Source: an uncultured archaeon
GTDB taxonomy: Archaea > Aenigmatarchaeota > Aenigmatarchaeia > CG10238-14
Reading direction: 5' to 3'
Assembly: GCA_964601485.1 (NCBI GenBank)
Contig: CAZRNP010000016.1
Location: 1 to 18,261 of the forward strand
Length of the DNA: 18,261 bases
Part shown: positions 358 through 18,261 of the stretch, one piece after another
Numbering within the stretch: position 1 is the stretch's first letter
Layout: the number at the start of each line of letters is the position of its first letter
Translations under genes and position numbers: made by a program
Notes under the pieces: generated by a model
The model's input: only the letters and a program-made list of their open reading frames with translations
What the model was told of the DNA's origin: nothing
Database searches by the model: none

Positions 358-448
358 TGGACCGGCTGAGATTCGAACTCAGGGCCTTTCGGTTATCAGC
401 TTCGTCGTATAGTACTCGAACGCTCCAGCCAGGCTGAGCTACCGGTCC
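358..448 (-). tRNA. tRNA-Ile (anticodon GAU) with a 16-nt intron
   Basis: Minus strand reads GGACCGG-TA-GCTC-AGCCTGGCTG-GAGC-G-TTCG[AGTACTATACGACGAA]G-CTGATAA-CCGAA-AGGCC-CTGAG-TTCGAAT-CTCAG-CCGGTCC-A. This is a complete cloverleaf once the bracketed insert (plus-strand 401-416) is removed. Anticodon GAT is the complement of 395-397. CCA is not encoded. Confidence 0.85.
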
Positions 449-507: not shown

Positions 508-579
508 GGGCCGATAGATCAACGGTAGATCGCTTGCTCCGCAAGTAAGAGGCTGAGGGTTCAAATCCCTCTCGGTCCA
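508..579 (+). tRNA. tRNA-Ala (anticodon CGC), atypical anticodon loop
   Basis: GGGCCGA-TA-GATC-AACGGTA-GATC-G-CTTGC-TCCGCAA-GTAAG-AGGCT-GAGGG-TTCAAAT-CCCTC-TCGGTCC-A. The acceptor stem carries G3:U70, the alanine identity pair. Anticodon CGC is at 540-542. Position 33 is C rather than the near-universal U. Confidence 0.75.
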
Positions 580-2453: not shown

Positions 2454-4838
2454 ATGAAGAAAAAAATTTCGTTGCTGATCTTCTCAATTCTAATTATTTT
2501 TCTTTTAATATCAACAGTAAAAGCAGATGGTGGATTCTTCCCTCCAGTTTATTACAAGGAAGACTTGTTTGAACCGACTCAAAAAGCCGTTATATTTCAT
2601 AACAACGGTGAAGAAAGAATAGTACTTCAAGTTGAATACAGCGGTTCAATGAAAGATTTTGCATGGGTAGTTCCTACCCCAAGTTATCCTGTTGTTAACA
2701 AGTCAGATCCACTTTTATTTGAAGAACTCCACTATTTAACTGAACCGATTTATAGAAGAGCTCCTGAGTGGCCATTGTTTTGGGGTTATTATGGTTCTGC
2801 CCTAATGGCAGTAGATAAAGGGGGTGTCCAACTTCTTGAAAGATATCAAGTTGGAATTTATGATGTGAGTATTCTATCTGCAACAGACCCTAATGCCTTA
2901 ATTAATTGGTTGAACAATAACAATTATTCAATCCCTCAAACTGCAAGAGGTGTAATTCAGCATTACATCGATAAAAATTGGTATTTTATTGCGATTAGAA
3001 TAAATTTAGCACCGTACAACGAAAATCTTATATCAACTCTCAGGAAAATCGACAGTAGGGTTACTACTCAAGAAAATGCAGTCCAATATTTGACAGACGA
3101 TTTAGTGAATTATGTAAAGGATGGAAAATTATACGATGAGTTAACTGCGATAAGAAATACTAATATAGAGTACGGTGAGGAAACAAAAACAAAGGTACAA
3201 GAGTTACCATACATGTATCGAATGCGTTATGAAAGTGCTCCTACTAGATTGATTGATGAGAGGGAATATACAGAATTATATGAAAATTATAACGGCTATT
3301 TAGATGATCACTTAAGGAATGATATACAGAAAAATATAGAAAATAAACTCACTCAAAAAATAGAGATTCCTTACTCGGATAGTTGTTATGAAGGTCGTCA
3401 CTGGCAAACAGGTGTTGATTATTCTTATTGTTATGTTTGGTATTTTACAAAAAATTCAGAAGAATATAAAACCTTGAAGAGTGTTGATTGCGGTCAGTAT
3501 TGTTCTAGAGTTTCTCAAACAAAAACCCAGTATTCAGCGGATGACTTAGCATACGTGGCGGCTAATGCTATAATGAATGGAGATGAATATATTAAAAACT
3601 ATTTTGAAATAACTCAGACGCAAATTGACTGGTATCAGAATTCTAAACAACGTTTCGATTATGTTTTCAATCAAGTTAAAAATAAGTTAATGGTAAAGTT
3701 AAATCAAGATGCGAATAATCTACGTTTACAGCTTGAACAACAATTAGCTCAAGAATATTCCCAAAAAACAGGAATGACTTTCAGTAATGTGAATGGAATT
3801 GCATATTTCTTTGCCGATAAGACATTACAAGATATTAAAACTGATAAAACATTCTTAAATTCATACATCTACAGTTTTGGTTTGATTGATTCTGGTGAAT
3901 ATACCAATTACAAAAGATTACACGATGGAAATCACGATGAAATAGGACTTAGGACTGCGATGGAGGAAATTGTAGATAAAGTAGTCTATTTTGAATACGA
4001 ACAAGTGAAAGGACAGTTAAACGCTGGAACAGTTCAACCATTGATGATAACATTCTATTCTGATGAAATAGTTTATCCTTTGAAAATGTCATCGATGAAC
4101 AAAGGCGCTGCTGAAATTTTGTTGTATGTTTTTACGAATTATAGAGTAGAAATAAATGGGTTCAATGTAGAATACGCTAAATGGATCAAACCCGAGGATA
4201 TAAGAACTGAAAGTTATCTCGAGTACAAAAGACAATATGGGGATAAACCAGTTTCTGAAGTCCCTCAATATTATCGAAAAGATGTTTATTATTACCTCAA
4301 CCAACTGTTGGATGACAGATACTTTTTGACCAAGATGAGAAGATCTATGTACCCAAGTGAAATGGAAGATTTGGTAATAACACAAGCTAGAAACAACGAA
4401 GAATACAGGTTGATTACATATGAACCGGGTTATGCAATGAAATGGATAGGGTTCATTATTGGAATCGGTATTTTAAGTTTGATCCTTACAGTTTTTTTCA
4501 TACCGATCGGATGGTTAAGCAATAGGTTGACAAATAGAAATGAAAAATCCATTTATTATGTTACTAAAAAAAGATGCTTTTATTATGCCTTAATATTCAT
4601 GCTTTTATTGGGCTTAACTATTATATTTTCTACTGTTGCAAATGTTTATTGGGATGTTTTAAAACCATTTAGCTGGTTTTTTGAATTCCTATCACATTTA
4701 TTGAATTTCATCGGACTTCCAGGACTTTTAATCGGAATAATTCTGTTCATACTTGCTTTATCCTTGATATTTGCTATTATACATGTAATTTTCAGTTTTA
4801 TCATATCGATATTTAAAACTTCAAAAAAACAATATTGA
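2454..4838 (+). CDS. DUF2330-like secreted protein with a large insert and a C-terminal multi-TM region (794 aa)
   Basis: Signal peptide MKKKISLLIFSILIIFLLISTVKA. It is followed by DGGFFPPVYYKEDLFEPTQKAVIFHNNGEERIVLQVEYSGSMKDFAWVVPTPSYP, which matches my memory of the DUF2330 N-terminal signature (GGFF ... FAWVxPxPs). The middle is about 450 aa, rich in Y/N/E/K with a 4-Cys cluster. Four or more TM helices occupy the last ~170 aa. Confidence 0.85.
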   Translation: MKKKISLLIFSILIIFLLISTVKADGGFFPPVYYKEDLFEPTQKAVIFHNNGEERIVLQVEYSGSMKDFAWVVPTPSYPVVNKSDPLLFEELHYLTEPIYRRAPEWPLFWGYYGSALMAVDKGGVQLLERYQVGIYDVSILSATDPNALINWLNNNNYSIPQTARGVIQHYIDKNWYFIAIRINLAPYNENLISTLRKIDSRVTTQENAVQYLTDDLVNYVKDGKLYDELTAIRNTNIEYGEETKTKVQELPYMYRMRYESAPTRLIDEREYTELYENYNGYLDDHLRNDIQKNIENKLTQKIEIPYSDSCYEGRHWQTGVDYSYCYVWYFTKNSEEYKTLKSVDCGQYCSRVSQTKTQYSADDLAYVAANAIMNGDEYIKNYFEITQTQIDWYQNSKQRFDYVFNQVKNKLMVKLNQDANNLRLQLEQQLAQEYSQKTGMTFSNVNGIAYFFADKTLQDIKTDKTFLNSYIYSFGLIDSGEYTNYKRLHDGNHDEIGLRTAMEEIVDKVVYFEYEQVKGQLNAGTVQPLMITFYSDEIVYPLKMSSMNKGAAEILLYVFTNYRVEINGFNVEYAKWIKPEDIRTESYLEYKRQYGDKPVSEVPQYYRKDVYYYLNQLLDDRYFLTKMRRSMYPSEMEDLVITQARNNEEYRLITYEPGYAMKWIGFIIGIGILSLILTVFFIPIGWLSNRLTNRNEKSIYYVTKKRCFYYALIFMLLLGLTIIFSTVANVYWDVLKPFSWFFEFLSHLLNFIGLPGLLIGIILFILALSLIFAIIHVIFSFIISIFKTSKKQY

Positions 4839-5918: not shown

Positions 5919-7709
5919 TCATACTTTCGACCCCGAGTAACTGGCTCTAAATTCGCTTAAAAAGGGAATTGCATCAACTTCCTTCGAAGGGATGTGAATT
6001 GCAGTTCCCTTCATATAAGCTATCGAGTGAGAAGTATAATTTATTTCAAGTCTTTTAAGCATGTGCATAAATTGTTCGGGAAAATTTGGCCAATAGTTGA
6101 TAGTCGCTTCTGTAACCCGACCCCTATCCCAGATCGCTTGTTCAACGTAACCTCTTAAAAGATTTTCCCCCATCTTCGCTAGTTTCCATGCATTTTCTTC
6201 GTCAACTCTTTCTATACTGTTAAAATCTAAAATGGGGGATAGCTGTGAAGGGAGGCATCGAGCAAATCTCGTGTACTGACCTTTAAATTTTTTCTGTCCA
6301 AATTTTTTTAAACCTTCACCAGATTCTTTTCTTTCAGTTTTTGCGGGTTCGAAATCACCAAAAACCTTAAACCTTTCGAAAGATCTTTCCCCTAATGTCC
6401 TTCTTTCTCCGTAAGAAAAGGTAAAATTTTCATTTGAATAAGTAGTCTTTCCTTCAAATACAGAGCCGAATAGCATCCCTTGCATCTCTTCAGTAATCGG
6501 AAATTTTGGGTTTTTTATGATTAACCCTGCTCCAATTTTGGACCAATATCTTGGGTTATCTAATCTAATTCCAAGTTTTTCTATGGTATCTAACAGAGTT
6601 TTATTTATTACGCTCTTTCCTGTATAATACGTACTGACTATATCAGCTGCAATTCTCCCTATTTTTGAATGAACAGCATCTATATTCAATAAATAGGGTT
6701 TACCTTCATCAACCCAATTTAAAGCCAAAGAATAAGACCAAGGCCACTTATAAGATGTACACAAAACCCATTTCATTTTTTCGTTAGGGCTTCCCATTGC
6801 TTGAATAACTTTAGCTCTTTGCAAAGTTCCAAGGACTTCTTGTTTCTCTCTTATCTTTTGCAATGTAGTTTCAACTTGAGAAGTAGGGAGGAATTCCCCA
6901 AGTTTTTCTCTAAGGCTTTCAACCTTACTATAACCTGCTACGACTCCGTCTATTAATTCTAATAAAGGTTTTGGGTCAGTGTGGGTTTGAATTAATTCAA
7001 TCAAATCTTTTCTGGCCTCTAAGAAAGTCTTTGTAGAACCCCCGAGTCTCCTATCTATTTTTCTGATTGTTTCTCTTGCTTCATCCTTCTTCCCTCCATA
7101 AAGACCCATAGCATCAACCAATGCCTCCTCGTTCAAACCATAAGCTATGTAGTTGCTTATAGGCCCATAAAGTCCCCAATAGATTTTTTCAAAATCTTCT
7201 TTGATGATTCCAAAAGCTTCATGTAACGGATATCCTTTCAAGACTCTTAAATCTGCGACTTTTTCAAGGTCAGGAACTCCTCTGAAGAGAGTTTTAAGTA
7301 TAGGATGAACGGCAATTCCAAATGTGTAAAAAACTGCCTCTCTCTCTATGTATTCATTAGGATTTATTCCTCTTTCTAAAAGACGGGGTTCAGCTCTTTT
7401 ACCAGCTTCTAATAATATCTTTCTTTGATGTTCTCTCCAGATTCGTTCTTGTTTAAGCTCAGAGTTAATACCCCTAACTTGTTCAACTTCGCCTTTAAGA
7501 TCGGCATCAAACAAACGTTCAGCATGAAGTTCAACATCATGAGCGGTGGGATGAACCCTAATTCCTTCTACCTTAATTTCTTGAGTTTCAGCTTTTTTTA
7601 CTAAATCTTTAACCGCTTCATCTAATTGTTGTTCGAGTCTTTCCTCTTCGTCTTTCCAATGCCAAGACAGAGTATGACCTTCTGGTAGATTTCTCCAATC
7701 GATCTGCAT
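5919..7709 (-). CDS. conserved-looking cytosolic protein of unknown function (596 aa)
   Basis: Uninterrupted 1.8-kb ORF with an ATG start, balanced composition and no TM or signal peptide. I found no P-loop, HExxH, KxDG, class I/II aaRS or other diagnostic motif. Confidence 0.8.
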   Translation of the reverse strand: MQIDWRNLPEGHTLSWHWKDEEERLEQQLDEAVKDLVKKAETQEIKVEGIRVHPTAHDVELHAERLFDADLKGEVEQVRGINSELKQERIWREHQRKILLEAGKRAEPRLLERGINPNEYIEREAVFYTFGIAVHPILKTLFRGVPDLEKVADLRVLKGYPLHEAFGIIKEDFEKIYWGLYGPISNYIAYGLNEEALVDAMGLYGGKKDEARETIRKIDRRLGGSTKTFLEARKDLIELIQTHTDPKPLLELIDGVVAGYSKVESLREKLGEFLPTSQVETTLQKIREKQEVLGTLQRAKVIQAMGSPNEKMKWVLCTSYKWPWSYSLALNWVDEGKPYLLNIDAVHSKIGRIAADIVSTYYTGKSVINKTLLDTIEKLGIRLDNPRYWSKIGAGLIIKNPKFPITEEMQGMLFGSVFEGKTTYSNENFTFSYGERRTLGERSFERFKVFGDFEPAKTERKESGEGLKKFGQKKFKGQYTRFARCLPSQLSPILDFNSIERVDEENAWKLAKMGENLLRGYVEQAIWDRGRVTEATINYWPNFPEQFMHMLKRLEINYTSHSIAYMKGTAIHIPSKEVDAIPFLSEFRASYSGSKV

Positions 7710-11055: not shown

Positions 11056-11120
11056 AATCCTAAAACTTTTAAAAACTTAAATAAACGAATTATTAGTAAA
11101 AAGGAAAGAAATTATACACA

Positions 11121-11139
11121 GGTGGATACGATTTAACAC
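11121..11139 (+). repeat. 19-bp perfect direct repeat GGTGGATACGATTTAACAC (left copy)
   Basis: Identical to 12543-12561. Both copies are preceded by AAATTAT(A/T)-ACA. A second partial copy, TTTAACACAGAAT at 11159-11171, matches 12554-12566 at 12 of 13 positions. Confidence 0.9.
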
Positions 11140-11314
11140 ATATCATGATCAGGAAATCTTTAACACAGAATGCTTCTGAAAATTATAAATTCCCTAAGTT
11201 CTTATGGCCGAGGGAGATAATATCGTTCATGGACCCAATGAAATTAGAATCTCAAAGTTGATACAGTTACCAAAAAATCTATCTGATTCAGAAAAATAAA
11301 AAGAAAAGAAAGGT

Positions 11315-11482
11315 TTAAGCATCTCTAGCTTTCAATGTCTTTCTCCCATTTTCCTTTGCTCTATCAGCAGCCCTTTTAACCATAGCTGCTACATCTGTAT
11401 CAAGTCTCTTCAAGAACTCTTCACTTGCTCTTGCCTTTCCTTTAACTAATTCTCTAACTCCACTCTTAACGATTAAAGCCAT
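11315..11482 (-). CDS. small histone-fold protein (55 aa; archaeal histone / DUF1931-like), missing from the ORF track
   Basis: SD AAGGGGGTGG sits 6 nt upstream of ATG 11482. Translation is MALIVKSGVRELVKGKARASEEFLKRLDTDVAAMVKRAADRAKENGRKTLKARDA. The C-terminal A..A...GRKT(L/I)KA.D matches the L2/alpha3 junction signature of archaeal histones (HMf-type ...AGRKTIKAEDI). The protein ends right after it, so alpha3 is absent. Confidence 0.7.
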   Translation of the reverse strand: MALIVKSGVRELVKGKARASEEFLKRLDTDVAAMVKRAADRAKENGRKTLKARDA

Positions 11483-11540
11483 TTATTTCCACCCCCTTTA
11501 TGATTAAATTTTCATTTAATGGATTTAATATAATAGAAAA

Positions 11541-11666
11541 TCAAAAATATTTTCCTCTCTTCTTTCGCCTTATGTTGCTATCAAATGTATCCGACATGTG
11601 TGATAGTCTACCGAATTCATCAGGCATTATTTTCTTTTTTTGTGATGTGTAATAACCTTTTACCAT
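11541..11666 (-). CDS. possible 41-aa basic micro-protein
   Basis: Own translation is MVKGYYTSQKKKIMPDEFGRLSHMSDTFDSNIRRKKRGKYF. It has an ATG start but only a distant GAGGA upstream, and no homology was recognised. Confidence 0.25.
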   Translation of the reverse strand: MVKGYYTSQKKKIMPDEFGRLSHMSDTFDSNIRRKKRGKYF

Positions 11667-11727
11667 TTTATTTCTCTCATTATCCTCATGCTAAATCAAG
11701 TTGCTAAAAAAGAAAAGGGGTTAGTAT

Positions 11728-11826
11728 TTACTCGTTGCACACCAACGCTCTGTAACCCTCTGCCGCCATTCCTGAGACTAAATAAAACATTAATAGTCTC
11801 ATTGAAAATACTTTTAGTTTTTCCAT
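11728..11826 (-). CDS. possible 32-aa hydrophobic micro-protein (alternative frame to track ORF 11696..11878)
   Basis: SD AAGGTGA (complement of 11832-11838) sits 5 nt upstream of ATG 11826. Translation is MEKLKVFSMRLLMFYLVSGMAAEGYRALVCNE. The overlapping 60-aa track ORF starts at GTG without an SD. I cannot decide which frame, if either, is real. Confidence 0.3.
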   Translation of the reverse strand: MEKLKVFSMRLLMFYLVSGMAAEGYRALVCNE

Positions 11827-12090
11827 TAAACTCACCTTTCGGATTAATAATAACAAGAAGATGGTGGTAGTGTATCACCTTAAGGCACTATTCACTTCAA
11901 GTTCAAAGTCATTCAATAGTTAAATTAAAGTAATCTGTTATATTATATATGTATTATAAGTATTAATATATATCTATTATAGTATAAAATAAAAGTGTTA
12001 CACAATAAAGGAAATTAGGAAATGATAATGATTGGTGGTAGTTTCTAATTGACTTATATTCATCTTCTATGTCTTCTTCGTCTACTTTCT

Positions 12091-12288
12091 TCACCCAACG
12101 CCTCTTTTTTTATCGTCTTTTTTAATATCTTCTTTCTTTTTCTCCTGTTCTCCTTTCTTTTTCTTAACCTCTTTAGTTTTCATAATTGAATTTTCTTTTT
12201 CCAATCTATCTACTAGCTTGCTTGTTCTGCTATGATAAACTATTTTTTTGTGTTTCTTTATTTTCTTCATCCATAATGGTTCTTCCAT
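12091..12288 (-). CDS. possible 65-aa lysine/glutamate-rich protein (shorter form of track ORF 12091..12369)
   Basis: An internal ATG at 12288 is preceded by AAAGGA. Translation is MEEPLWMKKIKKHKKIVYHSRTSKLVDRLEKENSIMKTKEVKKKKGEQEKKKEDIKKDDKKRGVG. The sequence is low-complexity, so it could be a composition artefact. Confidence 0.3.
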   Translation of the reverse strand: MEEPLWMKKIKKHKKIVYHSRTSKLVDRLEKENSIMKTKEVKKKKGEQEKKKEDIKKDDKKRGVG

Positions 12289-12319
12289 AACTATCCTTTC
12301 TCTTATCGAGAATAAAAAT

Positions 12320-12391
12320 TTATTTGATTCTCCCTCTTGTATGTTTGCTACGATTAGGTTTACAACCACGACACCTTTTTTTATTTACCAT
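12320..12391 (-). CDS. possible 23-aa basic CxxC peptide
   Basis: A textbook SD AAGGTGA sits 7 nt upstream of ATG 12391. Translation is MVNKKRCRGCKPNRSKHTRGRIK. It overlaps the 5' part of the 92-aa track ORF in another frame. Confidence 0.3.
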   Translation of the reverse strand: MVNKKRCRGCKPNRSKHTRGRIK

Positions 12392-12542
12392 TTTTTTTCA
12401 CCTTATTTTAATTCTTTAATCTTTTGTTGAATTATATTCCTAAAGAACAAAAATTTATCTTTTTCCCAAATTATTCAATGGGATAAAGGATTTGAAAATA
12501 AAACAGTTAAAGATAAAAATGCCCTTATAAATTATTAACAGA

Positions 12543-12561
12543 GGTGGATACGATTTAACAC
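12543..12561 (+). repeat. 19-bp perfect direct repeat GGTGGATACGATTTAACAC (right copy, inside the aRF1 leader / open frame)
   Basis: Identical to 11121-11139. It lies within the stretch 12539-12589 that is open in the aRF1 frame. Confidence 0.9.
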
Positions 12562-12589
12562 TGAATCCTTAATCAAACTGAGAAAACTC

Positions 12590-13830: not shown

Positions 13831-14616
13831 TTGAAAGTAAGAGAAGTTCTTGTTTACAGGCCTGGTGAAGAGATCAACATAGTAGAAAAACCTTTTAGAT
13901 GGGGTTTCTCTCAGACACCATACATGATACCGATGCAGAGAGAACACGATGAAATCATGAAAGTCCTACAGAACGAAGGAGTCAAAGTAAATTATCTGAG
14001 AAAAATGATCGGTTTTAAACCAAAGATGTACGTCTTAAGAGATGATGCTGTTGTTGTGGACAGAAAAGCGGTTGCATGCCATCTTTCTCAGGGGATAAGG
14101 AGGGGTGAAGAACAGATAGTCAAGTTAACGTTGAAAGAACTTGGGATAAAAATAGCTGGACACATCTTTGTTCCTGGTGTTTTAGAGGGGAGTGATTTGT
14201 TCTTCACGAGTAAAAATCATGCCTTCGCCATCGTGGGACCAAGGACCAACATGGAAGGCGTAAACCATCTTAAGGAAATTTTCAAGATAGATGTAACATC
14301 GATCCAAATGGACAATCTTTCCAGCACGCAATTCAACATCATAAACGATATCGCTGTCATAGATGAAGAATTGTCTTATGGTCCCTTGTTTACCGCCTTG
14401 AAAGAAAAGGAATATGACCTAGTCATCGCATCAAAAAAACAAGTCAATGAGATGGCCTTGAACTTCTTGCAGATAGACGATAATAAGATTGTCAACGTAA
14501 AATCAGAAATCAACAAAAAACTAAAGATGATGGGCCTTGACGTGATAGAGGTAGAGATAAGAGACTTGATGAAAGGAAACACTGGTGTTAGGAATATCTG
14601 TTTACCCTTCTACTGA
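13831..14616 (+). CDS. pentein-fold enzyme (amidinotransferase / dimethylarginine dimethylaminohydrolase / arginine deiminase-like)
   Basis: The ~260-aa length is typical of DDAH-like proteins. The N-terminus VLVYRP...EH..i...L...GV.V..L, the central DLFF, and the C-terminal G.TGVRNICLPF carrying the expected catalytic Cys near the C-terminus all fit. The TTG start at 13831 is preceded by AGTGAT. The call comes from pattern memory only. Confidence 0.65.
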   Translation: MKVREVLVYRPGEEINIVEKPFRWGFSQTPYMIPMQREHDEIMKVLQNEGVKVNYLRKMIGFKPKMYVLRDDAVVVDRKAVACHLSQGIRRGEEQIVKLTLKELGIKIAGHIFVPGVLEGSDLFFTSKNHAFAIVGPRTNMEGVNHLKEIFKIDVTSIQMDNLSSTQFNIINDIAVIDEELSYGPLFTALKEKEYDLVIASKKQVNEMALNFLQIDDNKIVNVKSEINKKLKMMGLDVIEVEIRDLMKGNTGVRNICLPFY

Positions 14617-15099
14617 TTTTGAATACGTTACGTTTAGTTTAGAGGTTCGGACTATAATTTTTGTGAAATCTTTGTTCCAGTCGGTTTGAATCGCTGTGGT
14701 TTGCCCTGATTTTAAAGGATCTCTTGGTTTGTTGATTATGTTTACCTTATTCTCATCCACATAAACAGTGAAGTTAGAGATTTGTATTTTACCAGGGTTA
14801 GAAACAGTTATCAAAAGGTTGTTGTTAGAATCCCTAGAAACTTCTGATACCTCTATGTTTTGGAATATTCTCTTGATGTAATTAACAATGTCGAAAGAAG
14901 ATGGATTTTGTGGGAATAAAGGACCGATTATCGGTATTGACCTAAGGCTCGGTATCGAACCTAAGATGAGGTGACCGGCTATAAGCGCAAAAAATATTAA
15001 GATTAAACCTATAGCTAAGCTCTTGACTATTTTGATCATCGTGTAAACTATTACTGCTAAAATCAAAATGCCTATAATTATTGAAATGACCATGTTCAA
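14602..15099 (-). CDS. hypothetical membrane protein (two N-terminal TM helices plus a beta-rich extracellular domain)
   Basis: Track ORF. Its TTG start is at 15099 and an alternative ATG lies at 15093. TM helices are ISIIIGILILAVIVYTMI and LAIGLILIFFALIAGHLILG. The 3' end overlaps the convergent pentein gene by 15 nt. Confidence 0.6.
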   Translation of the reverse strand: MNMVISIIIGILILAVIVYTMIKIVKSLAIGLILIFFALIAGHLILGSIPSLRSIPIIGPLFPQNPSSFDIVNYIKRIFQNIEVSEVSRDSNNNLLITVSNPGKIQISNFTVYVDENKVNIINKPRDPLKSGQTTAIQTDWNKDFTKIIVRTSKLNVTYSKSVEG

Positions 15100-15190: not shown

Positions 15191-15207
15191 TGGATAATTT
15201 ATCCAGG
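15191..15207. promoter_or_regulatory. 17-bp site TGGATAATTTATCCAGG (15-bp perfect palindrome TGGATAA-T-TTATCCA): putative operator, copy 1
   Basis: Ends 4 nt before ATG 15212 and lies 15 nt downstream of the TATA-like ATTTAAA (15176-15182). An identical 17-mer is at 17511-17527. Confidence 0.7.
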
Positions 15208-15211
15208 TTAC

Positions 15212-16903
15212 ATGAAAAGGATAATTTTGATTTTAATTTATTTTCAGATTATGATACTTCTGATATTACCACAATTTGTAGTTGCTAATTCGAACCTCAC
15301 TATAGCAATAGATTGGCTTAAAAAAAATCAGAGAGAAGATGGTTCCTATGGTTCTTGGACTGAACATTGGACTTCACCAGCAATGATAGCGCTCTATAAG
15401 AGCGAAGGTAATTCGTCTAATGTAACAACAGGTTTAAACTGGTTGAAGACCCAACTAGAAGATTCCTCTTCATGGTTCTGGGAAACATGGGGCGAAGCAG
15501 ATGTTCCTAGTATATCACTCTATGCTTTCACTCAAACAGACCATTTATCTGACATCGATCTATCCAATATCTCATCGAACATTCTCTCTTTTCAACAGAT
15601 GAGTGGCGGTTTCAAGGGATATTATGATCCAAATCTAGGCAGCCAAGTGGAAAGTAGTGTTGATACTACAATAGCAGTGTTGGGTTTAATAAATGCTAAT
15701 GCAATACCAGAAGAGAATAAGAATAAAGCAGTGAATTACTTGTTAAACCTGCAGAACTCAGACGGAAGTTTTAATCTAACACCCACCATACAATCTGATC
15801 CTTTATACTCTCACGCTCCTGAACCGATCAGTCTAACCGCGATGGTATTACTTACGCTGAAAGATTGTGGACTAGACACATCAAACACTTCTGTTCTGAA
15901 CGGAATGAACTATTTGAAAAATTCTGCTACCAATTGTTTTGATAATCACAGTTATGCTACTGCCTTATCATCAATAGTATTCGATCGATTCAACGAATTA
16001 AGTTATGAATTAATCGCGATAAATTGTTTAAAAAGTCTACAAAATCCAGATGGAGGGTTTTCAGATAGAATACGTACCACAAATGTTTCAAACGCTCTTG
16101 ATACTGGTTGGGCTGCTATCGCTCTACAAAAAGTTACACCGTTGATCAAAGTAGGAGTTTTAATCAGTTTTCCGAATGGAACAACATTTGCTCATTGCTT
16201 ACAATTACCGAATGGTTCAACCGCAGAAGATGCGTTAAAAGCCAGTGGTATGAAAACATTATGGGCATCTTTCAGTTTTGGTGATGCATTAACGAAGATT
16301 GAAGATGTAGGCTGTCCAACCTCAGATCCTTGGTGTCAATGTTCTAATATGAATGTTTGCTGTTTGCTCTGGAATTTTTGGATACTCAATTCAACCAATC
16401 AATGGAAATTCTCTCAAGTGGGATTTGGAGACTATAAGCTGAAAGATAAAGATGTATTTGGCAATATATGGGCGAGTGATGCAGGCAAAACACCTCCTTT
16501 ATTTTTATTCGATGAGATATGTCCTGATGGATTCACAATCAACAACAATTCCTTTGTTGGTGTTTACACTTGTGATTCAACTACGACAACCACGATTACG
16601 ACAACTTCTGTTGAAGTAACAACAACAGTCGTTGAGCATGGGGGTGGTGGTATGATCACAACTACGACAACGCAAACTACTGTTCCGATGACTACGACTA
16701 GTATTCAAACGACTACATCAACTACATTTTCACCTGCTCCAACTACAACAAGCACTGTCATTACAAACGTCACGAACAATCAGTTAAAGCCTAGTCCGTT
16801 AACAGGGTTTGTTGGTTTTATAATTTCTCCAGTTGGTATCGGTATAATTGTTGCAATAGTTGTCCTAGCATTTTTTGTTTATTTAATGTTGCCAGAGAGA
16901 TAG
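15212..16903 (+). CDS. surface-anchored protein: prenyltransferase/terpene-cyclase-like alpha/alpha toroid + DUF4430 (transcobalamin-beta-like) domain + Thr-rich stalk + C-terminal TM anchor
   Basis: Signal peptide MKRIILILIYFQIMILLILPQFVVA. There are six repeats of the type WL...Q..DGSyG / SGGFKGYY / LQNSDGSFN / LQNPDGGFSD (aa ~30-308). Aa ~312-421 read GVLISFPNGTT...GSTAEDALKASG...W.FWILN...QWKFSQVGFGDYKLKDKDVFGNIW, which fits the DUF4430 pattern. A poly-Thr stalk spans aa ~456-517. The C-terminus is PLTGFVGFIISPVGIGIIVAIVVLAFFVYLMLPER. Many N-x-S/T sequons are present. Confidence 0.85.
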   Translation: MKRIILILIYFQIMILLILPQFVVANSNLTIAIDWLKKNQREDGSYGSWTEHWTSPAMIALYKSEGNSSNVTTGLNWLKTQLEDSSSWFWETWGEADVPSISLYAFTQTDHLSDIDLSNISSNILSFQQMSGGFKGYYDPNLGSQVESSVDTTIAVLGLINANAIPEENKNKAVNYLLNLQNSDGSFNLTPTIQSDPLYSHAPEPISLTAMVLLTLKDCGLDTSNTSVLNGMNYLKNSATNCFDNHSYATALSSIVFDRFNELSYELIAINCLKSLQNPDGGFSDRIRTTNVSNALDTGWAAIALQKVTPLIKVGVLISFPNGTTFAHCLQLPNGSTAEDALKASGMKTLWASFSFGDALTKIEDVGCPTSDPWCQCSNMNVCCLLWNFWILNSTNQWKFSQVGFGDYKLKDKDVFGNIWASDAGKTPPLFLFDEICPDGFTINNNSFVGVYTCDSTTTTTITTTSVEVTTTVVEHGGGGMITTTTTQTTVPMTTTSIQTTTSTTFSPAPTTTSTVITNVTNNQLKPSPLTGFVGFIISPVGIGIIVAIVVLAFFVYLMLPER

Positions 16904-17470
16904 TGCTACTTTTATTGAAGCTTCTTCTGATATTTTTTTCGTAGAACCTGAGCCTATTATTATGACATCTCCGTTCTCAACCTTGAAATGGTTACGGAGG
17001 ATTTTTTCCAATCCTGTAATTTTTCTGTTGCATCCTGGGAATATTAGTCTGTTATTATTACAAACCAAAGTTGTTGCGCCATCAGCTCCTATTTTTATAG
17101 CCTCGTCCCTCTGCTCGATGCCGAATTTAACTTTTTTTGATGAGCCTTTAACAAGAATTGCAGTGTTGTACTTTCCGATTGTGCATTCACTCGTGTCTAT
17201 TTCTATAGGTTTTGAGATTTTCATCAGGATTTTTTTCAACAGTTCATTCCCTTTTTCAGTCAGTACATGCCCTTTAGTAGAAGGCTTAATTAATTTATTC
17301 ATTTTCAGACGCTTTACAAGAGTTTTAATCGTAGCTTCCCCCATTTCCATTTCTTTCATCAGTTGAAACCTTCCCATGGGTTTTTCGGAGAGTAAAAAAA
17401 GGGTCTTAACTATATGGACAGGGGAATAAGATGCCCTGACATCGATCAAATCTTTAAACATGTTATCCAT
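16883..17470 (-). CDS. winged-helix transcriptional regulator with an uncharacterised C-terminal domain (possibly the archaeal DUF4443 family)
   Basis: The N-terminus IVKTLFLLSEKPMGRFQLMKEMEMGEATIKTLVKRLKMNKLIKPSTKGHVLTEKGNELL is a MarR/PadR-like wHTH. The C-terminal ~110 aa (GADGATTLV...IIIGSGS) look like a small-ligand-binding or dimerisation domain. The gene is divergent from the S-component-like gene, and its 3' end overlaps the 563-aa gene by 21 nt. Confidence 0.75.
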   Translation of the reverse strand: MDNMFKDLIDVRASYSPVHIVKTLFLLSEKPMGRFQLMKEMEMGEATIKTLVKRLKMNKLIKPSTKGHVLTEKGNELLKKILMKISKPIEIDTSECTIGKYNTAILVKGSSKKVKFGIEQRDEAIKIGADGATTLVCNNNRLIFPGCNRKITGLEKILRNHFKVENGDVIIIGSGSTKKISEEASIKVALSLWQH

Positions 17471-17510: not shown

Positions 17511-17527
17511 TGGATAATTTATCCAGG
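17511..17527. promoter_or_regulatory. 17-bp site TGGATAATTTATCCAGG: putative operator, copy 2
   Basis: Identical to 15191-15207. It ends 8 nt before ATG 17536 (3 nt before an out-of-frame ATG at 17531) and lies 18 nt downstream of the TATA-like ATTTAAA (17493-17499). It sits in the divergent intergenic region shared with the regulator gene, whose start is at 17470. Confidence 0.7.
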
Positions 17528-17535
17528 ATCATGCC

Positions 17536-18261
17536 ATGGAACAAGAATTAAAACAAAAAAGTCAACAGGGAACTTTACTTTTGTCTGCTCAAAGGACGAA
17601 ATATTCCTTGAAGAGAAAATTGTTATTAATGATGGGTTTAACTTCCTTAGGAATCTTAGGAAGGGCTGCATTCCAATTCATACCGAGCGTTGAACCCTTG
17701 ACGCCCTTGGCTATATTGACTGGGTTTTTACTTGGCCCGATTTCTGGTTTTATTTCTGGTGTTGTTGGTTTTTATCTATCCAATTTTCTCGTTTGGGGTT
17801 TTCAAGGGCCTTGGACTGTTTTCCAATGTTTGGGTGCAGGTCTGGCAGGTTTCATCGGTGGGTTGATAGGAAAGTTAGGGAAGAAATCGAGGACAAAATT
17901 TTTAATATCCACTTTAATAGGGATAATCGTTTATGAGATAATTGTGACTGTTTCCATGGGAATGATGTTCTCTTTACCATTGTTAGTGTTCTATACAATA
18001 ACTAGTATTCCATTCTCTATAGTTCATTTGTCGAGTAGCTTAGGTTTTTCCCTATCATTTTACGAGTTCAAAGAACAGATAAAAAAATTGAAGGGTGGTT
18101 TAGTTGAAAAAGAGATACTTGGCTTCAGGGTTGCTCATAGTAGTACTGGCAAGCCTGGTAATAAACTTGTACCTTACCTTTACTCCAGAAAAATCCACAG
18201 AAAAGATAAGGGTAGTAGCAAGGATAGATTTTGGTGCTTCAGAAAAGACAAAGACAGTTGA
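17536..18261 (+). CDS. polytopic membrane protein resembling an ECF-transporter substrate-specific (S) component, with a basic C-terminal tail
   Basis: Five to six TM helices. The stretch IPSVEPLTPLAILTGFLLGPISGFISGVVGFYLSNFLVWGFQGPWTVFQCLGAGLAGFIGGLIG fits the general S-component pattern (P.v.P.t...ilaG.llGp..Gf..G....l.sn.l.g.G.W..fQ....l.G...G). The TGA stop is at the last base of the window. Family assignment comes from pattern memory only. Confidence 0.6.
   Translation: MEQELKQKSQQGTLLLSAQRTKYSLKRKLLLMMGLTSLGILGRAAFQFIPSVEPLTPLAILTGFLLGPISGFISGVVGFYLSNFLVWGFQGPWTVFQCLGAGLAGFIGGLIGKLGKKSRTKFLISTLIGIIVYEIIVTVSMGMMFSLPLLVFYTITSIPFSIVHLSSSLGFSLSFYEFKEQIKKLKGGLVEKEILGFRVAHSSTGKPGNKLVPYLYSRKIHRKDKGSSKDRFWCFRKDKDS

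Follow-up and report, generated by a model that had tools for sequence, protein, structure and literature searches.

The cobalamin carriers of mammals, transcobalamin (TC), intrinsic factor (IF) and haptocorrin (HC; structures 2bb5, 2pmv and 4kki), are secreted, glycosylated proteins in which an N-terminal alpha6/alpha6 toroid is followed by a small SLBB domain with a beta-hairpin. Prokaryotic proteins of comparable design were described by Burroughs, Balaji, Iyer and Aravind in 2007 (PMC1796856), who found secreted SLBB domains with an alpha/alpha toroid fused to one side or the other, with surface anchoring and a CbiO/CbiQ operon context, and who predicted that such proteins scavenge B12 or its precursors. 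The subject of this study is a surface protein of an uncultured archaeon of the Aenigmatarchaeota, encoded by an open reading frame (ORF) of 563 codons with an ATG start at positions 15212..16903 of the forward strand of contig CAZRNP010000016.1 (assembly GCA_964601485.1), the complete 18,261-nucleotide stretch being referred to below as the window. That this is a toroid plus transcobalamin-beta-like surface protein coupled to an energy-coupling factor (ECF) transporter S component is, in our estimation, very likely; judging from sequence comparisons and predicted structures, it probably captures corrinoids on a surface tether and supplies them to an ECF importer of a DPANN archaeon.

With the proteins of the 2007 survey the window protein shares the two-domain logic, the signal peptide, the surface anchoring and the association with ECF-type (CbiO/CbiQ) transporters, but the SLBB domains described there are of the DUF4430 type (PF14478) and come mainly from Firmicutes, and the archaeal examples listed have Ig, fasciclin or propeller domains as fusion partners in place of a toroid. 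Riboswitches, Cys-rich forms and actinobacterial members are not mentioned in that paper. The toroid plus SLBB kind is already known in prokaryotes; what is new here is the archaeal single-chain fusion of an SCO2321-type toroid with an SCO2322-type disulfide-rich SLBB, the Thr stalk with its C-terminal tether, the solitary CbrT-like S component with which it is paired, and, where the bacterial operons have a riboswitch, a protein regulator and a predicted palindromic operator common to both genes.

The toroid and the C-terminal module of the window protein are homologous to the SCO2321 and SCO2322 families (NF053823, NF040672, PF28005), which are named after Streptomyces coelicolor genes and which likewise combine an extracytoplasmic anchor with an ECF S component next door. 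In bacteria these are mostly separate genes, with their own EcfT and ATPase and under riboswitch control, whereas the window has one fused polypeptide, a solitary S component and a protein regulator, is without Cys 60 and Cys 82, and scores below the NCBIfam cutoffs. Nothing was found in the literature on the function of SCO2321-SCO2324.

As a rule, ECF-type vitamin importers are described as operating with no binding protein outside the cytoplasm. Extracytoplasmic high-affinity capture of corrinoids feeding a membrane transporter is carried out by BtuG and BtuH of Bacteroides and by periplasmic BtuF, to which the window protein would be a functional analogue of unrelated fold (beta-propeller and class III binding protein, respectively), the transporters served, TonB-dependent BtuB and BtuCD, belonging to classes other than ECF.

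The toroid and the transcobalamin-beta-like module

The toroid comprises residues 26-307 (15287..16132, forward strand) and is of the prenyltransferase/squalene-cyclase/TED type. Three Pfam families exceed their cutoffs over approximately these residues (SQHop_cyclase_C at 1.3e-12, Prenyltrans at 2.4e-9 and TED_complement at 4e-9), the AlphaFold2 model, obtained with 73 homologues, consists of 12 long helices in an alpha6/alpha6 arrangement with a predicted local distance difference test (pLDDT) score of ~97, and Foldseek matches it to squalene-hopene cyclase, AprG, MstE and A2M-TED structures as well as to TC and haptocorrin. An earlier note on this DNA, made from the sequence without database searches, had proposed just such a prenyltransferase/cyclase-repeat toroid on the basis of four repeat motifs, which are located at residues 39-47, 131-138, 180-188 and 276-285, and this proposal is borne out by all three lines of evidence. 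At the family level the toroid matches NCBIfam SCO2321_fam (NF053823) with 34.7 bits (E 8.9e-9), below the equivalog cutoff of 300 bits, and is by sequence a relative of the SCO2321 family, not an equivalog of it. By profile, the toroid family is close to squalene-hopene cyclases, A2M TED domains and GGTase beta subunits and not to transcobalamin. The family itself is made up of very abundant secreted proteins of ~330 aa, many of which carry dockerin, PKD or CARDB modules and some a genuine DUF4430 (P0117, P0084 and P0124), and the nearest named relatives of the toroid are from Micrarchaeota.

These matches to squalene-cyclase and prenyltransferase repeats in Pfam and NCBIfam, together with the name given by NCBI to one relative ('terpene cyclase/mutase family protein'), could be taken to mean that the protein is an extracellular terpene cyclase or prenyltransferase-type enzyme. 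We consider this scarcely tenable, the enzyme reading being effectively refuted by missing catalytic motifs: neither DxDD (D.DD) nor CGEQ was found in the whole protein (the zinc-ligand triad of prenyltransferases lay outside this check), the position equivalent to the former reading SSVDTT, so that the toroid can be classed neither with the class II cyclases nor with the thioester domains. Its score against cyclase equivalogs is also far under their cutoffs (44.7 versus 322.7 bits), and both its extracytoplasmic location and its linkage to a transporter speak against an enzyme.

The second domain, at residues 312-456 (16145..16579, forward strand), is assigned by fold and profiles as a transcobalamin-beta-like SLBB beta-grasp module of the SCO2322 family. 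Modelled alone with AlphaFold2 it reaches a pLDDT of 90.4 and a predicted TM-score of 0.84, and its 19 best Foldseek matches in the PDB are all beta domains of TC, haptocorrin or intrinsic factor, or else 3u7z, the solved structure of a bacterial DUF4430 protein (E 5.6e-5 to 1.3e-2), with TM-scores of up to 0.84 on stand-alone domains (3u7z, TMt 0.84), after which generic ubiquitin-like folds follow at E>=0.08. In the numbering of the module the model has strands at 2-8 and 14-20, a helix at 27-33, a hairpin at 38-43/46-52, and further strands at 75-81, 87-89 and 104-110. A beta-hairpin following the helix is the defining trait of the transcobalamin-like SLBB clade (Burroughs et al. 2007, PMC1796856), and the model carries this hairpin on a five-strand beta-grasp core, which places the module in that clade.

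Family membership was established with a module profile that was built on six full-length relatives and run exhaustively with HMMER against 1.84 billion cluster representatives, yielding 1345 proteins at E<=1e-3, of which 426 reach E<=1e-10; a word-indexed homologue search with the same profile gave only 2 matches. Among the matches retrieved, 87% of the modules begin within the first 70 residues, typically in short secreted proteins. The profile retrieves PF28005/SCO2322 proteins at 1e-17 to 1e-19, bacterial members are assigned to PF28005 ("SCO2322") in newer Pfam and to NF040672 ("SCO2322 family protein") in NCBIfam, and a reciprocal hidden Markov model (HMM) from bacterial members only finds the window module with 85 bits (E 2e-22). 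Because the profile matches are reciprocal and the bacterial members are so named, we assign the module to the SCO2322 family, of which it is, on sequence and model grounds, a distant archaeal member and itself a transcobalamin-beta-like SLBB. NF040672 gives no match on the window module at E<=0.01; the bacterial members reach 39-42 bits against it, the cutoff being 85.

The earlier note had placed the C-terminal domain in DUF4430 and had named HMM searches with PF14478 and PF01122 as the check. Neither of the two matches the window protein, PF14478 (gathering threshold 23.8 bits) giving nothing on the isolated module even at E<=10, so that of this claim the likeness of fold to the DUF4430 structure 3u7z stands and the Pfam assignment does not. 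Searches of PDB sequences with the module or the protein gave no transcobalamin match, the module profile retrieving nothing at all, and an hhalign comparison of the thin clade profile with the DUF4430 of P0117 was not significant. A connection is provided by protein P0227, whose repeats are matched over the same residues by the module profile (E ~1.7e-14) and by Pfam DUF4430 (E 2e-13). The SCO2322 family ties to DUF4430 only transitively and by fold.

Directly after the clade-specific hairpin lies the Cys cluster GCPTSDPWCQCSNMNVCC (residues 367-384, 16310..16363, forward strand), which the earlier note had located correctly to within two nucleotides (~16310-16365) and had called an unusual insertion. 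The latter description has to be abandoned, the cluster being a conserved disulfide signature of a family with more than 1000 representatives. Eight Cys are present in 121 of 152 modules, in the pattern C...C...GC..C.C.C...C...C, of which the window module has six of the eight conserved columns plus two clade-specific Cys. Of the 152 modules, 136 have Cys in both columns 60 and 82, 15 in neither and one in a single column of the two; for columns 87 and 98 the corresponding figures are 109, 43 and 0. The window clade is without the 60/82 pair as a unit, as in those 15 of 152 modules. Such paired gain and loss, observed in alignments, indicates disulfides. Since the hairpin in transcobalamin contacts B12 prominently (Burroughs et al. 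2007, PMC1796856) and the Cys cluster follows a hairpin of this type directly, the Cys loop, by analogy, probably shapes the ligand face of the module.

As the earlier note had claimed, toroid and beta domain follow each other on one chain in the order seen in transcobalamin, with 12 helices and then a beta-grasp in the models. When the whole ectodomain is searched with Foldseek, TC and haptocorrin are, among the 50 best matches listed, the only structures whose alignments exceed the query length (454-475 columns), and these alignments therefore span both domains. The window protein differs from TC, IF and HC in having no detectable sequence similarity to them in either domain, a toroid of the squalene-cyclase/prenyltransferase repeat type, a beta module with conserved disulfides, a linker of only ~4 residues, a membrane tether on a Thr stalk and another modelled domain orientation. 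The association of toroid and module recurs independently: the two are fused with the toroid first in archaea and in the reverse order in Caldilineaceae (P0128 and P0141), and they are adjacent separate genes in many bacteria.

Gene neighbourhood and the shared palindrome

Downstream of the surface-protein gene lie a regulator gene and an S-component gene. The latter (17536..18261, forward strand) encodes 241 aa and exceeds the cutoff of PF12822 (36.3 versus 30.7 bits, E 7.2e-9); its sole sequence match in the PDB at E<=10 is 6fnp_A, from ECF-CbrT of Lactobacillus delbrueckii, at E 1.5e-6 over 157 of 182 residues. This 182-aa chain is labelled "Membrane protein" and, judging by its length and its homology to the S component, would be CbrT itself. 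In the paper on 6FNP, ECF-CbrT is presented as dedicated to the import of cobalamin and cobinamide, with no competition from hemin, and solitary CbrT without the ECF module was inactive; no extracytoplasmic capture protein is described there for ECF-CbrT, nor is CbrS of the nrdJ-cbrS-cbrT-pduO cluster described.

Between the two genes, on the reverse strand (16883..17470), is encoded a winged helix-turn-helix (wHTH) plus DUF4443 regulator of the PH0730/2p8t family (E 1.5e-21 to 2p8t), whose nearest named relatives are from Candidatus Aenigmarchaeota (89% identity). Its gene is convergent with the surface-protein gene, with an overlap of 21 nt, and divergent from the S-component gene, from which it is separated by 65 nt. 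The trio of surface protein, regulator and S component is kept in the close relatives L001 and L002, and the regulator adjoins the system in L001, L002, L004 and L006. The last two belong to a GC-rich Micrarchaeota lineage of very different G+C content, whose surface protein is 37% identical to that of the window, the cluster in L006 containing a homologous S-like membrane protein (E 7e-8), the regulator (E 6e-18) and a gene for toroid plus Cys-module. A scan of genome contigs yielded one locus only, from the same species as L004.

An identical 17-mer, TGGATAATTTATCCAGG, stands before both the surface-protein gene and the S-component gene, at 15191..15207, 4 nt before the ATG of the former and downstream of a TATA-like A/T run, and at 17511..17527, 8 nt before the ATG of the latter and 41 nt upstream of the regulator start. 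Its core, TGGATAATTTATCCA, is a perfect 7-1-7 palindrome, and both copies lie just 3' of a TATA-like run. These are the only two palindrome sites in the window, where 0.15 would be expected by chance when up to 2 mismatches are allowed, and none of 200 shuffled sequences reaches this count. The copies flank the regulator gene, and the palindrome is conserved in relatives: the consensus TGGATRANTYATCCA is found at the same positions in L001-L003 and upstream of a 51%-identical orthologue in L047, and in the GC-rich L004 and L006 the palindrome takes the form TGGATGAATCATCCA, in the divergent promoter that separates the regulator operon from the SLBB/toroid genes. No match to TGGATRANTYATCCA was found in the other 40 loci, 247 kb in total.

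The identical palindrome at both genes puts the surface protein and the S component in one predicted regulon, and the two copies are accordingly treated here as candidate operators, for which the DUF4443 protein is the obvious candidate repressor. A palindrome of the same type, TGGATAACTTATCCA, occurs at 6013-6027 of locus L014, ~425 nt downstream of the gene for a 56%-identical DUF4443 regulator, in a locus without ECF, SLBB or toroid genes. Sequence comparison thus suggests an operator of the DUF4443 regulator family and not a B12-specific element. The notion that DUF4443 regulators are generally linked to B12 was rejected, since three distant members have unrelated neighbours, with no ECF, SLBB or toroid genes among them. 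We also rejected, as a general rule, the identification of DUF4443 regulators with the wHTH-SLBB sensors of Burroughs et al., 2p8t not being among the 50 fold matches listed for the C-terminal module. The predicted operator provides a first handle on the DUF4443/PH0730 regulator family.

This neighbourhood bears on whether the protein could serve a DPANN symbiont as a surface adhesin or as a structural part of its envelope, the toroid then being a TED-like binding module and the link to the S component incidental. Such a role would fit the stalk and anchor, which are typical of envelope proteins, and the fact that most toroid relatives are without SLBB and carry dockerin, PKD or CARDB surface modules; we nevertheless regard it as improbable, given that linkage to the S component and the regulator is kept across distant lineages with a common operator, that in bacteria the split modules form part of ECF operons, and that the toroid has no thioester motif.

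Further extracytoplasmic SLBB-type proteins occur in some relatives. Three of them, a stand-alone DUF4430, a DUF4430-like anchored protein and the toroid plus Cys-module protein, are encoded at 4152-8657 of L006 (the same cluster as L004), and P0124 combines toroid, Cys-module and classical DUF4430 on one chain. Paralogous surface SLBB proteins have been speculated to form complexes (Burroughs et al. 2007, PMC1796856).

Cobalamin riboswitches of bacterial relatives and the predicted ligand

In Chloroflexota, the homologous operons have the order toroid, one or two Cys-modules, ECF-S, CbiQ/EcfT and double ATPase, and in all three loci for which upstream sequence is available a cobalamin riboswitch (RF00174) precedes the operon with 64.2, 42.9 and 35.8 bits (gathering threshold 31.5), on the operon strand and 39-222 nt before the toroid gene. 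A further 30 metagenomic loci were collected by means of a hand-written DNA pattern for GCPxxDCFCQC, all 30 being confirmed by HMM. In these, RF00174 was found in 11 (41-71 bits), always upstream and on the same strand, and in 10 of the 10 loci whose upstream sequence exceeds 1.7 kb; among the 19 negative loci, 17 end before the operon leader and two are short, ambiguous contigs. Altogether, 14 operons have a cobalamin riboswitch, including 13 of 13 whose leader is fully available, and this position upstream of bacterial operons makes the module family part of a bacterial B12 riboswitch regulon. One of the toroids that head a riboswitch-controlled ECF operon, a protein of 319 aa at 7969-8928 of L011, on a contig labelled Roseilinea, passes the cutoff of Pfam Cobalamin_bind (PF01122) with 25.8 versus 25 bits and may be a useful bridge, in sequence terms, from the bacterial toroids to the alpha domain of animal TC.

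Combined with the CbrT-like S component and the transcobalamin-like folds, this regulation points to a corrinoid as the probable ligand of the surface protein, a prediction based on sequence and modelling. The glycosylated ectodomain, composed of the toroid and the disulfide-stabilised SLBB, would be held on its stalk at the surface of the DPANN-type archaeon, where both domains together, presumably at their interface, would capture a corrinoid (cobalamin, cobinamide or a related one) from the surroundings or from a host cell and would hand it over to the neighbouring CbrT-like S component, to be imported, the wHTH-DUF4443 regulator probably controlling both genes through the identical palindromic operator. 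The transcobalamin-like reading of the earlier note thus survives in substance, by way of fold and gene context, while the Pfam route to it, the "unusual insertion" and the novelty of such proteins in prokaryotes do not.

A number of observations weigh against a corrinoid. Cobalamin riboswitches commonly regulate cobalt ECF transporters and the uptake of precursors too, and they consequently mark B12 metabolism and not necessarily intact corrinoid. The S components of the bacterial operons gave no CbrT match when compared with the PDB, which leaves the link to CbrT resting on the S component of the window. Neither Pfam nor the family profile relates the window toroid to the TC alpha domain in sequence: Cobalamin_bind (PF01122) does not match the window protein even at E<=10, and no TC, IF or HC chain is found by the toroid-family profile among PDB sequences at E<=10. 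Structural comparison, proposed in the earlier note as a check, recovered folds of the TC type but not the TC-like clamp, the modelled orientation of the domains being unlike that of holo-TC (AlphaFold2, root-mean-square deviation ~22 A over both domains). Within its 18 kb, the window shows neither an ECF A/T module nor a B12-dependent enzyme. Burroughs et al. (2007, PMC1796856) moreover raised the possibility of a different ligand in archaea, and in Lactobacillus sakei a related split toroid/beta pair, Lsa1840/Lsa1839, lying beside an ECF transporter, has been linked to haem uptake (L. sakei preprint).

It could be, then, that the same architecture hands haem, another tetrapyrrole or another metabolite to the ECF S component. 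For haem there is the report that the L. sakei Lsa1836-1840 system, an ECF transporter with split toroid/beta proteins, mediates its uptake; for another cofactor generally, one may cite the distinct metabolite proposed for archaea in 2007, the lack of sequence relationship between the window toroid and the TC alpha domain, and the fact that no riboswitch was found in the window or at the archaeal loci. With 14 bacterial operons of the Cys-module family under cobalamin riboswitches, we consider a ligand other than a corrinoid unlikely.

The riboswitches would also be compatible with a B12-regulated metal importer in which the Cys-rich module binds a metal ion such as cobalt, given that they often govern cobalt ECF transporters, that 'putative metal binding protein' is the description under which 3u7z was deposited, and that the cluster is rich in Cys. 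Metal ECF systems use S components of the CbiM/NikM type. The S components found here are of the vitamin-type family PF12822, with no CbiM/NikM-type family among their Pfam matches, and that of the window matches CbrT; moreover, the Cys columns come and go in pairs, as expected of disulfides and not of a single metal site. Metal binding is in our view very improbable, and corrinoid capture is retained as the preferred reading.

Should corrinoid binding be confirmed, this would be the first biochemical validation of the 2007 prediction of transcobalamin-like capture proteins in prokaryotes, and would mean that ECF-type B12 importers can have extracytoplasmic capture partners. DPANN archaea rely on cofactors from other cells and would thereby have a cofactor-scavenging device with a defined regulon, and a function would be obtained for SCO2321-like toroids and SCO2322-like Cys modules, which have more than 1000 representative clusters and lie behind cobalamin riboswitches. 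A still broader picture is possible, although we lean slightly against it: a two-part prokaryotic 'transcobalamin', made up of a cyclase-type toroid and a disulfide-rich SLBB, might serve ECF importers across Chloroflexota, probably Actinobacteria, and DPANN archaea, being fused, stalked and glycosylated in the last and co-regulated with the S component by a DUF4443 repressor through TGGATRA-N-TYATCCA, so that an obligate symbiont could take corrinoids from its host or from competitors.

Ends of the surface protein and the remaining genes of the window

The annotated NCBI start of the surface protein (P0001, 550 aa) is Met14, 13 codons downstream of the ATG used here (15251 versus 15212), and cuts off the charged n-region of the signal peptide. 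The longer N-terminus, MKRIIL..., is retained in P0002-P0005 as in the 563-aa ORF, and a hydrophobicity scan delimits the signal peptide as MKRIILILIYFQIMILLILPQFVVA (residues 1-25, 15212..15286, forward strand). The protein has 13 N-x-S/T sequons, 12 of them in the ectodomain, a modest enrichment over the 7.0 +/- 2.3 of shuffled sequence (p ~0.02). The module is followed by a stalk recognised by its composition, with ~40% Thr (residues 457-528, 16580..16795, forward strand), and then by PLTGF, a C-terminal hydrophobic helix, a short tail and the stop (residues 529-563, 16796..16903, forward strand). Signal peptide, sequons and Thr stalk are thus present as the earlier note had described them, and so is the hydrophobic helix that it took for a membrane anchor, but this end of the protein is either a membrane anchor or a sorting signal.

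The motif P-x-T-G-[FL] (PLTGF, residues 529-533, 16796-16810) lies between the Thr/Pro-rich stalk and the terminal helix, and is also found at the C-termini of P0002-P0007, P0117, P0124 and a 361-aa protein at 5908-6993 of L006. The looser form xxTG[FL] is present in 8 of 33 anchored toroid-family proteins versus 2.8% of background windows, in about three lineages only, and Pfam Gram_pos_anchor matches P0007 weakly. As a sequence layout this is like a sorting signal of the LPXTG/PGF-CTERM type, and the surface protein may be processed and attached rather than simply anchored in the membrane.

Directly upstream of the surface-protein gene and divergent from it, a 165-aa membrane-anchored protein with a weak CARDB match is encoded on the reverse strand (14602-15099), and this protein is conserved at the same position in L001 and L003 (163 aa). 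The remaining genes of the window are housekeeping genes, including those for aRF1, a class I tRNA synthetase and tRNAs. A region of ~1.5 kb (11056-12589) contains no ORF of at least 100 aa and no Rfam match; within it, on the reverse strand, are a 55-aa ORF (11315-11482), histone-fold-like by eye, and a Lys-rich ORF of 92 aa (12091-12369), both without a Pfam match. The two tRNA genes at 358-448 (reverse) and 508-579 (forward) are divergent, and the first, with 91 nt against a 71-position model, may contain an intron. Finally, a large envelope protein of 794 aa is encoded at 2454-4838 on the forward strand, with an N-terminal signal, DUF2330 (E 6e-39) and several C-terminal transmembrane helices.

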